Origin: SAR202 cluster bacterium bin22
GTDB taxonomy: Bacteria > Chloroflexota > Dehalococcoidia > Lucifugimonadales > UBA3495
Direction of reading: 5' to 3'
Assembly: GCA_002238505.1 (NCBI GenBank)
Contig: MPMM01000001.1
Location: 1,037,811 to 1,101,810, forward strand
DNA: 64,000 bases
Shown here: piece by piece, positions 47,022 to 50,000 of the stretch
Layout of the letters: each line of letters starts with the position of its first letter
How positions within the stretch are numbered: position 1 is the first letter of the stretch
Translations under genes and position numbers: made by a program
Notes under the pieces: generated by a model
Database searches by the model: none
What the model saw: the letters and a program-made list of their open reading frames with translations, nothing else
Told to the model about the DNA's origin: nothing

Positions 47022-50000
47022 GTCAAATCTCTCGACCGGTTAGTATCGGTATGCTGAAACTGTTGCCAGCCTTACACATCCGACCTATCAAGCAGATAGT
47101 CTCTCTGCAGTCTTACTCCCGAAATTAATCGGGAAGGGAGGCCTCATCTTGGGGGATGCTTCGCGCTTAGATGCCTTCAGCGCTTATCGCTGCCAGACAT
47201 GGCTACCCAGCGCTGCTCCTGGCGGAACAACTGGAACACCATAGGTCTGTCCCTCCCGGTCCTCTCGTACTAGGGAGAGGTTCCCTCAAGCCTCCTGCGC
47301 CCACGGCGGATAGAGACCGAACTGTCTCACGACGTTCTGAACCCAACTCACGTACCCCTTTAACCGGCGAACAGCCGGACCCTTGGGACCGCCTTCAGCC
47401 CCAGGATGGGACGAGCCGACATCGAGGTGCCAAACCTCGCCGTCGATGTGAACTCTTGGGCGAGATAAGCCTGTTATCCCCGGGGTAGCTTTTATCCGAT
47501 AAGCCACGGCCCTTCCACACGGTGCCGTAGGATCACTTTGCCCGACTTTCGTCCCTGCTCGACTTGTAGGTCTCGCAGTCAAGCCCTCTTATGCCAATGC
47601 GTTCTGTGGACGATTTCCATCCGTCCTGAGAGGACCTTTGGGCGCCTCCGTTACTTTTTAGGAGGCAACCGCCCCAGTTAAACTGCCCACCAAGCACTGT
47701 TCCCCAGTTTTGCTGAGGTTAGAACCAAAAACAGCCAAGGGTGGTATTTCAACGGCGACTCCACCCCTACTGGCGTAGGGGATTCATAGTCTCCCACCTA
47801 TCCTACACATGACAGCTCCCAGCCCAATGCCAGGCTACAGTAAAGCTCCACGGGGTCTTTTTGTCCTGCCGCGGGTCGCCCGCGTCTTCACGGGCACCGC
47901 AATTTCACCGAGCCCTCCGCCGAGACAATGGCCAAGTCGTTCAACCATTCATGCGGGTCGGAACTTACCCGACAAGGGACTTCGCTACCTTAGGCATTTT
48001 GTTACTCCCTCCAGACCTGTTGCCAAGCAAGAGGTGGGCCGGTCATTTCTGCCGACCTCTGCATGTCGCCATGCAGATCGGACCATATCTTCCCGTACGT
48101 TCCGCCTACGGGTCCGGCGTATGGTCTCTGAGGATTCCTAACTTTGCTTCTCCCAGATTAGCCGCCAGAGTCGCCCCTGGCAGATGCACCAAAGAGTCGC
48201 ATTGGTCAGGTCTTTCCTGCTGATAATCCGCACCGGACACATTGTCACCTTCCCCTTATGATGTCGGGGCCGGTAGCGCCGGATCCTCGGACTTCCCAGC
48301 ATATAGCCAGATTTTACAACGGCCTTAAACACAGCACTTCCAGGTAACCTGGACTTGCAGCGTTCGGTTGACCGTTAGAGTTACGGCCGCCGTTCACCGG
48401 GGCTTCAGTTCGTAGCTTGCACCACTCCCCTTAACCTTCCGGCACTGGGCAGGCGTCAGCCTGTATACGTAGGGTTTCCCCTTAGCACAGACCTGTGTTT
48501 TTGTTAAACAGTCGCCCGGCCTTCTTATCTGCGCCCCCGAAGCGCTCCACCGGCTAGCGGTTTCACCCCCCAGGGGGCCCTTTCTCCCAAAGTTACAGGG
48601 CTCTTTTGTCTAGTTCCTTAGCGGAGGTTAGCTCGAACACCTAGGGACTTTTATCCCAGCCCACCAGTGGCGGTTTGCGGTACGGTCGCCGCTGCTTCTC
48701 CAAACGAAGCTTTTCTCGTCGGTTTGGGTTCAGCCGGATTTCGTTAGCCCTTAGACTACGATTCCCTCAACCCTCAGCTTAACGCCAGAGTGGATTTGCC
48801 TGCCCTGGCTCGCCTACGGAGGAGGACGCCAATCCAATAAGACGCCCGACCTACCCTTCCGCACCCCTCCGAGTATCATAAAAACAACGGCGGTGCAGGA
48901 ATATTAACCTGCTGTCCATCGCCTTCGGCACTTGCCTACGGCTTAGGACCGACTAACCCTACGCCGATAAACGTTGCGTAGGAAACCTTGGGCTTTCGGT
49001 GTCAGGGATTCTCACCCTGATTTACGCTACTCATTCCGGGATTCTCACTTCCCCGCGCTCCAGCAAGCCTCACGACTCACCTTCGTCGCCCGAGGAACGC
49101 TCCCCTACCACGCCCAGGCAGCTTCAACAACTTGCACTCCACCCTTACGGCATTGCACCATAAGGCTGGAATTAAGTTGTTGTACCTGAACATCCACGGC
49201 TTCGGCGGCAGGCTTAAGCCCCGTTACATTTTCGGCGCAGGACCCCTCGACCAGTGAGCTATTACGCACTCTTTAAAGGAATGGCTGCTTCTAAGCCAAC
49301 CTCCTGGTTGTTTTGGGAACCCCACCTCCTTTCCCACTTAGCCTGCGCTTGGGGACCTTAGCCGGTGGTCTGGGCTGTTTCCCTTTTGACAATCGCACTT
49401 ATCTGTGACTGTCTCACTCCCGGGTATCGGCAGAACGGCATTGGTGGTTTGATTGAGTTTGGTAAGCTCACGCCCCCTAGCCCATTCAGTGCCCTACCTC
49501 CGTCCTCCTAATTCCCGAGGCTGCACCTAAATGCATTTCGGGGAGAACTAGCTATTTCCGAGTTCGATTGGCATTTCACCTCTACCCACAGCTCATCCCA
49601 AGCTTTTGTACTAGCCACGAGTTCGATCCTTCAGTCCGCGTTAACGAACCTTCAATCTGGCCATGGGTAGCTCACCCGGTTTCGAGTCTACTACATGGAA
49701 CTGAACGCCCTATTCAGACTCGCTTTCGCTACGGCTCCGGAACTCCAGTTCCTTAACCTTGCTCCATACAGTAAGTCCCCGGATCATTCTTCAATAGGCA
49801 CGCCGTCACCCCGAACTGAATCGAGGCTGCGACATTCTGTAGGCTTACGGTTTCAGGTCTATTTCACTCCCCGCTAGGGGTTCTTTTCACCTTTCCCTCA
49901 CGGTACTGGTGCGCTATCGGTGACCAAGGGTATTTAGCCTTGGAGGGTGGTCCCCCCAACTTCCCACAAGGTTTCCCGTGCCCCGTGGTACTCAGGAAAA

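Follow-up and report, generated by a model that had tools for sequence, protein, structure and literature searches.

The 23S ribosomal RNA (rRNA) gene of SAR202 cluster bacterium bin22, a member of the Dehalococcoidia (Chloroflexota), is interrupted by 376 nucleotides (nt) immediately after the position equivalent to Escherichia coli U1923. We examined this insert within a stretch of 64,000 nt of contig MPMM01000001.1 (assembly GCA_002238505.1, positions 1,037,811 to 1,101,810), hereafter the window, to which the positions given below refer unless another locus is named. Our main finding is that the insert is very probably a group I intron, P2-less, with a complex P5 and an IB4-like organization, an assignment drawn from sequence comparison and predicted structure. 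A preliminary description, made from the letters alone, had proposed a group I intron without an open reading frame (ORF) at this site; a covariance model, covariation within a family of homologues, and alleles that lack exactly the insert all agree with that proposal.

The host gene lies on the minus strand (50437..47019) and matches the Rfam model LSU_rRNA_bacteria (RF02541, LSU standing for large subunit) from position 1 to 2925 with a score of 2633 bits. It is 3419 nt long with the intron, compared to the 2925 positions of the model, and 3043 nt once the intron is removed. Along this strand, the 5' exon ends in GGCGGCCGTAACTCTAACGGT (48371, E. coli U1923), the insert runs from CAACCGAACG to GTAACAAAATG (48370..47995), and the 3' exon opens with CCTAAGGTAGCGAA (47994, C1924). 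Read in the RNA sense, the helix 69-71 region consists of GGCGGCCGUAACUCUAACGGU, the 376 nt of the insert, and CCUAAGGUAGCGAA; in a local Rfam scan the LSU model aligned with both flanks and left a single unaligned insert of 381 nt between them. We number helix 69 from E. coli G1906 to U1923 and C1924; the positions of its pseudouridines (1911, 1915 and 1917) fit this numbering, which puts the insert after U1923, at the base of the helix. Helix 69 forms the conserved inter-subunit bridge B2a. Both ends have the form that the preliminary description had read from the sequence, the 5' exon finishing in U and the intron in G (omega-G). The site is called LSU/1923 by Nawrocki et al. (2018, PMC6125680), here L1923, and n.1923 of the LSU rRNA is the target of I-CeuI (PMC3315327).

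Close relatives show that the insert is optional. The enoyl-CoA hydratase gene upstream of the 23S gene (51068-51913) has the same neighbours in other assemblies, and its homologues (66-91% identity, the named ones belonging to Dehalococcoidia or Chloroflexi) gave seven further loci. Three of these carry no intron, namely L072, L076 and L075, whose 23S exons are respectively 98.55%, 96.5% and 94.5% identical to those of the window. Their 23S sequence continues directly from GTAACTCTAACGGT into CCTAAGGTAGCGAAGTCCC, and the junction, GGT/CCTAAGG, is the one predicted for ligated exons. An intron is present in three others: L073 (exons about 97.7% identical; intron of 378 nt, 88.9% identical), L074 (exons 94-97%; 380 nt) and L078 (exons 91-96%; 478 nt). 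In L077, no 23S gene stands beside the enoyl-CoA hydratase gene and the comparison is not applicable. The intron thus amounts to a clean 376-nt indel against intron-less syntenic alleles, which fixes its ends independently and indicates that it is dispensable; these are intron-less alleles of the kind that the preliminary description had proposed to look for. A 1-nt C ambiguity at the intron ends in these comparisons is resolved by the rule that U stands at -1 and omega-G closes the intron. The 60 nt on either side of L1923 are identical in all eight sequences compared, and the flanking exons are 97-98% identical to those of Dehalococcoidia metagenome-assembled genomes (MAGs), which, together with the names of the flanking-protein homologues, identifies the host. 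The state of the site is interleaved with relatedness: the window, with the intron, is nearest to the intron-less L072, while L073, with the intron, is nearest to L072 and L076, both without it. Such a distribution points to repeated gain or loss.

Two additional assemblies, L001 (ENA) and L002 (NCBI, GCA_026710505.1), contain an intron 100% identical to that of the window. In L001 (13920-14895) the 5' exon and the intron are both 100% identical, while the 3' exon is about 97.7-98.3% identical and the downstream genes differ; this jump in identity is due to recombination at the intron or, alternatively, to an assembly that is chimeric between rRNA variants.

The interior of the insert matches the Rfam group I model. 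In a permissive scan of 47950-48420, Intron_gpI (RF00028) aligned over the full model (1-253) with an E value of 6.7e-10 and 43.5 bits, a score under the Rfam gathering score of 50, and the match takes in the characteristic CAGAGACC...GAAGAUAUGGUCCGAUCUG. The alignment treats a hairpin at nt 15-36 as P1 and the real guide (ggccguugua) as an insertion, and this placement of the P1-loop (L1) hairpin as P1 accounts for the sub-threshold score. The minimum free energy of the insert is -154 kcal/mol (z = -4.97), and none of 100 shuffles folds as well. The family motif occurs once in the window, against an expectation of 0.00.

Covariation was assessed on an alignment (A1) of 44 sequences, that is, the window intron and 43 homologues described below, each with 12 nt of both exons, onto the columns of which a hand-drawn structure was mapped. 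Controls were obtained by sliding helix partners by 1-3 columns and by 500 shuffles. For the core comprising P1 and P3 to P9.1, including the P3/P7 pseudoknot, 96.9% of 2544 cells hold standard pairs, versus 32-42% in the slid controls. Both sides change in a compensatory manner at 29 of the 58 core pairs, compared with 7-15 when partners are slid; covariation scores 0.326 (0.03-0.07 in controls), and none of the 500 shuffles reaches any of the observed measures. A second count, restricted to P5b/c and P9.2, gave 93.7% paired cells versus 41-54%, with compensatory changes at 11 of 13 pairs. The intron accordingly has the hallmarks of group I: a P1 with a U.G wobble, a P3-P8 core with the P3/P7 pseudoknot and stacked P4-P6, and a G-C pair in P7 together with omega-G. 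Manual folding, proposed earlier as a check alongside the Rfam model, thus recovers the P3-P9 core and the putative guanosine-binding pair in P7.

The elements of this structure, all on the minus strand, can be followed from the 5' end. In P1, the exon nucleotides UAACGGU (48377..48371) and intron C1 (48370) pair with the internal guide GGCCGUUG (nt 47-54, 48317..48324) in a helix of 8 bp (48370..48377 for the 5' strand), the 5' splice site falling after U 48371. The pairing of GCCGUUG (nt 48-54) with UAACGGU, as first described, is borne out by both the sequence and the family alignment: the splice-site wobble U(-1).G48 is kept in 43 of 44 sequences, and changes in the guide preserve pairing (G-C to G-U, U.G to U-A). 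RNAalifold, applied to the 5' regions of 26 Dehalococcoidia introns, returned exactly this 8-bp P1 and nothing further. What places the guide 47 nt into the intron is an extension hairpin (nt 6-44, 48327..48365, from a constrained fold) that fills the P1 loop, a trait confined to the Dehalococcoidia subtype and absent from the preliminary description. P1-loop inserts measure 45-66 nt in all Dehalococcoidia members and 6-14 nt in Acidimicrobiia; folded one by one, 24 of 31 long inserts form a stable hairpin (z < -2), with a median z of -3.06. Alignment-based covariation for the L1 hairpin was abandoned, the region being too divergent to align. P2 is absent between P1 and P3, since the guide stops at nt 54 and P3 begins at nt 60, and the sole extra 5' hairpin is the one inside the P1 loop.

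P3 joins nt 60-65 (48306..48311) to nt 253-258 (48113..48118), the latter located from the family alignment; five of its six pairs show compensatory changes and 98.5% of cells are paired. P4, formed by nt 70-75 (48296..48301) and nt 148-153 (48218..48223), is 99.6% paired and mostly invariant. Fold and covariation together define a P5 domain with branched P5a/b/c (nt 78-146, 48225..48293), in which P5 is 80-83/141-144 and P5a is 89-95/131-138, with compensatory changes at 6 of 7 P5a pairs and at 6 of 8 P5b/c pairs (94.4% paired). They likewise define P6 and its long variable extension (nt 154-239, 48132..48217): P6 proper (154-155/238-239) consists of the invariant pairs G154-C239 and G155-C238, while P6a (161-163/232-234) covaries. 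The 5' strand of P7, GAGACCA (nt 243-249, 48122..48128), forms a pseudoknot with nt 286-291; P7 is made up of G243, the bulged A244 and 245-248/287-291, and is pseudoknotted with P3. G243, the bulged A244 and G245-C290, the presumed guanosine-binding pair, are invariant in 44 of 44 sequences, while C248-G287 becomes U-A in 20 of 44.

In the 3' half, the P8 hairpin (nt 259-279, 48092..48112; pairs 259-262/276-279) shows compensatory changes at all four tested pairs. It is followed by J8/7, AAGAUA (nt 280-285), and by the P7 3' strand UGGUCC (nt 286-291), which together (48080..48091) correspond to the Rfam consensus gAAGAUAUAGUC. J7/9 contains the 5' strand of P9.0 (A293, U294) and leads into P9 (nt 295-312; 48059..48078 for both), the hairpin with a GCGA tetraloop that the preliminary description had noticed. 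P9 (295-301/306-312) is supported by covariation, with compensatory changes at 4 of 7 pairs and 100% pairing. P9.1 (nt 314-334, 48037..48057; 314-319/329-334) has a conserved loop, CAGAAAUGA, and compensatory changes at 4 of 6 pairs; in P9.2 (nt 337-363, 48008..48034) these affect 5 of 5 closing pairs, 92.7% of cells being paired. The intron closes with a conserved tail, GUAACAAAAUG (47995..48005), ending in omega-G at 47995; within it, the 3' side of P9.0 is made up of A374 and U375. This two-base helix, next to omega-G, is near invariant at A293-U375, and its other pair varies between U294-A374 (20 sequences) and C-G (15 sequences). The final G is common to all 43 homologues, preceded by U in 42 of them and by A in L041.

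The homologues come from a scan of GTDB species genomes for insertions of 332-392 nt exactly between ...GTAACTNTAACGGT and CCTAAGGTAGCGAA. It returned 44 loci, about 25 in Dehalococcoidia/Chloroflexota, about 14 in Acidimicrobiia and other Actinomycetota, 3 in Zixibacteria, and 1 each in Ignavibacteria, Acidobacteriota and Bacillota. Forty-three are homologous to the window insert, with L043 and L034 the closest (about 91% identity); in every one of the 43 a conserved GUAACAAA tail precedes the final G, and many reside in long-read, chromosome-level MAGs. The remaining candidate, L032 (Bacillota MAG, 475-829), was rejected as an intron: its insert starts with CCTAAGGTAGCG and ends with AACTATAACGGT, which is a tandemly duplicated stretch of 23S, possibly a misassembly. 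Members without the L1 hairpin exceed the Rfam gathering threshold at L1923 (L011, 64.2 bits; L026, 64.4; L020, 58.4; L038, 56.1), while at that threshold Rfam reported no L1923 intron in the Dehalococcoidia loci L014 and L043, as for the window. The L1-hairpin subtype of Dehalococcoidia scores under the cut-off, so that routine annotation systematically overlooks it. Across the family, intron identity follows the identity of the flanking exons (Spearman 0.69). Recent transfer between phyla was considered and dismissed, as no pair from different phyla has an intron identity clearly above its exon identity; together, these two results suggest mostly vertical descent at deep levels and turnover at shallow ones.

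Some members show further peculiarities of their rRNA genes. In the Acidimicrobiia MAG L011, group I introns that are significant in Rfam occur at three places, close to the 16S 3' end, at L1923 and at about L2593 of the 23S (210-1044, 3600-3901 and 5351-5708), and L029 is also among the Acidimicrobiia MAGs with multi-intron rRNA operons. L038 has three 23S insertions, one at L1923 (389-758), one of about 770 nt just downstream (~759-1531, about position 1931-1951) and one of about 730 nt near 2593 (~2184-2913). Its L1923 intron opens (389-520) with a guide-like GGCCGUGG and a P3/P4-like segment, and a second P3/P4 segment follows about 100 nt on, an arrangement that resembles a partial duplication of the 5' core within the intron. 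Six short-read contigs from several samples (L003-L008) break off inside the 23S gene, at 589, 992 or about 1460 nt, ahead of the intron, which illustrates why short-read assemblies seldom show such introns.

Chloroplasts (PMC3315327) and archaea (PMC6125680) are known to have group I introns at LSU/1923. The nearest described relatives appear among the latter, where all nine LSU/1923 introns are classed as IB4 (IB4.7,.9,.11,.13,.17,.18,.20,.21 and.28; Nawrocki, Jones & Eddy 2018, PMC6125680). They share the site and the format of P7, which in IB4.9, IB4.11, IB4.13 and IB4.20 is GAGACCA/UGGUCC with the second base bulged, identical to that of the window, and some members, of 278-324 nt, are ORF-less as here (PMC6125680). 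The window intron differs in its bacterial host, its length of 376 nt and its P1-loop hairpin, a comparison made on published descriptions and P7 rather than on a full alignment. Introns without P2 are typically IC2, IA1 or IB4 (PMC1995217), and the window intron has no P2; this architecture, the identity of P7 and the IB4 class of all archaeal LSU/1923 introns lead us to call it IB4-like. In the chloroplast of Chlamydomonas eugametos, Ce.LSU.5, which encodes I-CeuI, occupies the same target (PMC3315327); as described, it contains a LAGLIDADG homing endonuclease gene, whereas the window intron and its 43 bacterial homologues have none.

Bacterial 23S group I introns have been reported at L1917 and L1931 in Thermotoga, at L1931 in Simkania, at L1917 and L1951 in Coxiella, and at L1917, L1931 and L2593 in Synechococcus and Thermosynechococcus (Haugen et al. 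2007, PMC1995217). Those at L1917 and L1931 have a complex P5, an IC1-like P7 and no P2 (PMC1995217), a description that fits the window intron with its branched P5 and its P9.1 and P9.2. All share with it a 23S host gene and the domain IV/V functional core, but L1923 lies outside the four bacterial sites known in 2007 (L1917, L1931, L1951 and L2593; PMC1995217) and outside the main sites reported in 2024 for bacteria of the Candidate Phyla Radiation (CPR). Moreover, most described bacterial 23S introns have LAGLIDADG genes, while the present one is ORF-less, and the family described here resides in Dehalococcoidia and other environmental lineages that are uncultured. The CPR bacteria are rich in 23S introns, additionally at about 2604, 2657 and other sites (PMC11270868).

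A further set of relatives comes from viruses. Eighteen IMG/VR viral contigs (L053-L070) contain a 3' domain that agrees nearly motif for motif with that of the L1923 family, in P7, J8/7, the GCGA loop of P9, a P9.1 loop of the CAGAAAUGA type and the tail GUAACAAnnUG; in L055 the whole P3-P9.2 core is shared. These viral introns have no 23S flanks and thus lie outside rRNA, where their guides necessarily differ, and they appear to interrupt protein-coding genes. In L063 the 3' domain is present twice, at a spacing of about 315 nt.

Several points weigh against a functional IB4-like intron. The window intron falls short of the 50 bits set as gathering score for the Rfam group I model, and a scan of the whole window at the gathering threshold reports LSU rRNA, T-box and tRNA but no intron. 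The IB4-like label derives from architecture and the P7 match rather than from a subgroup-specific model. P10, weak and poorly conserved, was discarded as a family-wide helix: UUUAAG (nt 42-47) does pair with CCUAAG at five of six positions in the window, as the preliminary description had it, but this pairing is confined to the Dehalococcoidia subtype, only G47-C(+1) is general, and Acidimicrobiia keep just that pair. The 3' splice site is better defined by the covarying P9.0 and omega-G than by P10. Finally, we infer splicing in vivo and catalytic activity from sequence features, and there is a bacterial precedent for a lack of splicing: the title of Everett et al. (1999), a reference in PMC11270868, describes the Simkania L1931 intron as unspliced.

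Alternatively, the insert might descend from group I introns but have ceased to be spliced, being retained in the mature 23S rRNA as an expansion at the base of helix 69, as in Simkania, or it might need a host protein in order to splice. We consider this improbable. The low Rfam score and the unusual 45-nt hairpin inside the P1 loop could point to impaired function, but the score is accounted for by the alignment of that hairpin as P1, and the insert breaks helix 69 (bridge B2a), while close relatives function without it. The catalytic landmarks, moreover, are kept across five phyla: the U.G wobble in 43 of 44 sequences, omega-G in 43 of 43, the invariant G245-C290, J8/7 and the covarying P9.0. 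Such conservation is expected under selection for splicing rather than under mere tolerance of the insert.

Intervening sequences (IVSs) of the enterobacterial or Coxiella type, which RNase III excises without religation to leave a fragmented 23S rRNA, make up the most frequent class of large insertion in 23S genes of bacteria, and 18.5% of non-CPR 23S genes in RefSeq have insertions of at least 100 bp according to the CPR survey. For the present insert this origin is very improbable: known IVSs lie in helices 9, 25 and 45 and have a long terminal stem, whereas here the insertion is at the base of helix 69, a classic intron site, its ends are not complementary (only 3 bp form between them in the unconstrained minimum free energy fold), and its interior is a covariation-supported group I core. 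Equally hard to sustain is an assembly artefact in which a foreign intron was joined into a bacterial rRNA contig. It is true that rRNA regions break metagenome assemblies, as L003-L008 demonstrate by ending inside the 23S gene, and that the identity jump of L001 falls exactly at the 3' exon. However, the same intron in the same context was recovered in independent assemblies from different sources (L001 from ENA, L002 from NCBI), homologues are present in many long-read, chromosome-level MAGs, and intron divergence tracks that of the host.

If the insert is indeed a spliced group I intron, it would be transcribed within the pre-23S rRNA and fold into its P3-P9 core, the guide GGCCGUUG pairing with the last seven exon nucleotides, so that the U.G wobble marks the 5' splice site. 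This site would then be attacked by an external guanosine bound to the G245-C290 pair of P7. Omega-G376, placed by P9.0, would subsequently replace the external guanosine, and the freed exon U1923 would attack the 3' splice site, ligating ...ACGGU to CCUAAGG... and restoring helix 69.

No homing endonuclease was detected in the intron. The longest sense-strand ORF within the insert, already remarked in the preliminary description, is 64 amino acids (aa) long; it has a GTG start, and there is no endonuclease ORF of the kind carried by LAGLIDADG-type mobile introns. We rejected the 64-aa frame as a gene: it has no Pfam match, its start is not conserved (the codon is R, W, M or stop in relatives), and it is open only over the RNA-conserved P3-P5 region, after which it shifts or terminates. 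A homing endonuclease gene would not fit into any of the 43 homologues (332-392 nt), which is a consequence of the range of lengths to which the scan was limited. A metagenome scan aimed at endonuclease-bearing relatives, whose pattern combined the 5' junction with the guide and P3/P4, gave one match, L071. This contig, from a soil-type metagenome, has an L1923 family intron of 816 nt (697-1512), with about 450 extra nt in P6. Frames in this P6 are LAGLIDADG-like by eye (YLAGF..GEGCF; PFFD..DFLKF), but they have no Pfam or PDB sequence match, and we leave them unclassified rather than call them an endonuclease gene. The 23S gene of L071 has two more insertions of about 327 nt, near E. coli positions ~2500 and ~2593 (~2139-2464 and ~2552-2878), of which the one at ~2593 scores 28.9 bits with the Rfam group I model.

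The ORFs of 396 and 111 aa that flank the rRNA gene were considered as free-standing nucleases, and neither belongs to a Pfam family. The 396-aa ORF (45634-46824, minus strand), just downstream of tRNA-Met, contains a D...EAK motif reminiscent of PD-(D/E)xK nucleases. A 382-aa ORF, with no Pfam match on record, occupies the corresponding position beside both the intron-less L072 and the intron-bearing L073; if the two ORFs are homologous, presence of the ORF would not correlate with the intron.

The remainder of the locus requires brief mention. Without its intron, the 23S gene still has about 118 nt more than the Rfam model, including insertions of about 18 and 25 nt in domain I (model ~283 and ~312; window ~50090-50165, minus strand). 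A tRNA-Met(CAT) gene (46856-46930, minus strand) directly follows it. The Rfam scan found no 16S or 5S rRNA in any part of the 64-kb window, which means that the rRNA genes are not linked; L014 and L043, both from Dehalococcoidia, have the same 23S-tRNA layout, with no 16S or 5S gene nearby. Further along, a T-box leader (105 bits; 39906-40167, minus strand) stands immediately upstream of a 587-aa ORF (38125-39888, minus strand), presumably an aminoacyl-tRNA synthetase or related gene, an arrangement that is ordinary for Chloroflexota.

In a literature search that covered sources outside subscription journals, so that a prior report is possible, we found no description of a bacterial intron at L1923 or of rRNA introns in Dehalococcoidia or Acidimicrobiia, which is consistent with the preliminary description, whose author knew of none at this site. 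Its accompanying statement that group I introns are rare in bacterial rRNA genes proved overstated, given at least 43 GTDB species-level genomes with a homologous L1923 intron and the wealth of 23S introns in CPR bacteria (PMC11270868). Bacterial L1923 introns apparently constitute a large, undescribed family at a single site in dozens of environmental genomes. The family is widespread and polymorphic; its members are ORF-less, related to introns borne by phages, and in part undetected by Rfam.

Descriptions of group I introns in bacterial rRNA usually present them as oddities, found in a few thermophiles, in intracellular pathogens and in the CPR. At the I-CeuI site, long-read genomes of major environmental lineages commonly contain a well-folded intron without an ORF, and 23S alleles that are nearly identical differ in whether they have it. 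Introns of this kind inflate 23S assemblies and annotations or break them, and could disturb rRNA-based taxonomy and probe design. For ribozyme biology, they provide a natural covariation set of at least 40 sequences, with an unusual P1-loop extension and phage-borne relatives. More tentatively, and with the balance of our judgment still against it, the intron may be one tip of a large unrecognized radiation of ORF-less group I introns in rRNA genes of abundant free-living bacteria (Dehalococcoidia, Acidimicrobiia, Zixibacteria and others), related to those of phages and gained and lost among close relatives without an endonuclease of their own. Such introns might spread by recombination across flanking rRNA that is nearly identical, by reverse splicing, or with the help of a nuclease that acts in trans or comes from a phage. 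If there is such a radiation, rRNA introns outside the CPR would be far commoner than the literature states, having been hidden by breaks in short-read assemblies and by the Rfam threshold.

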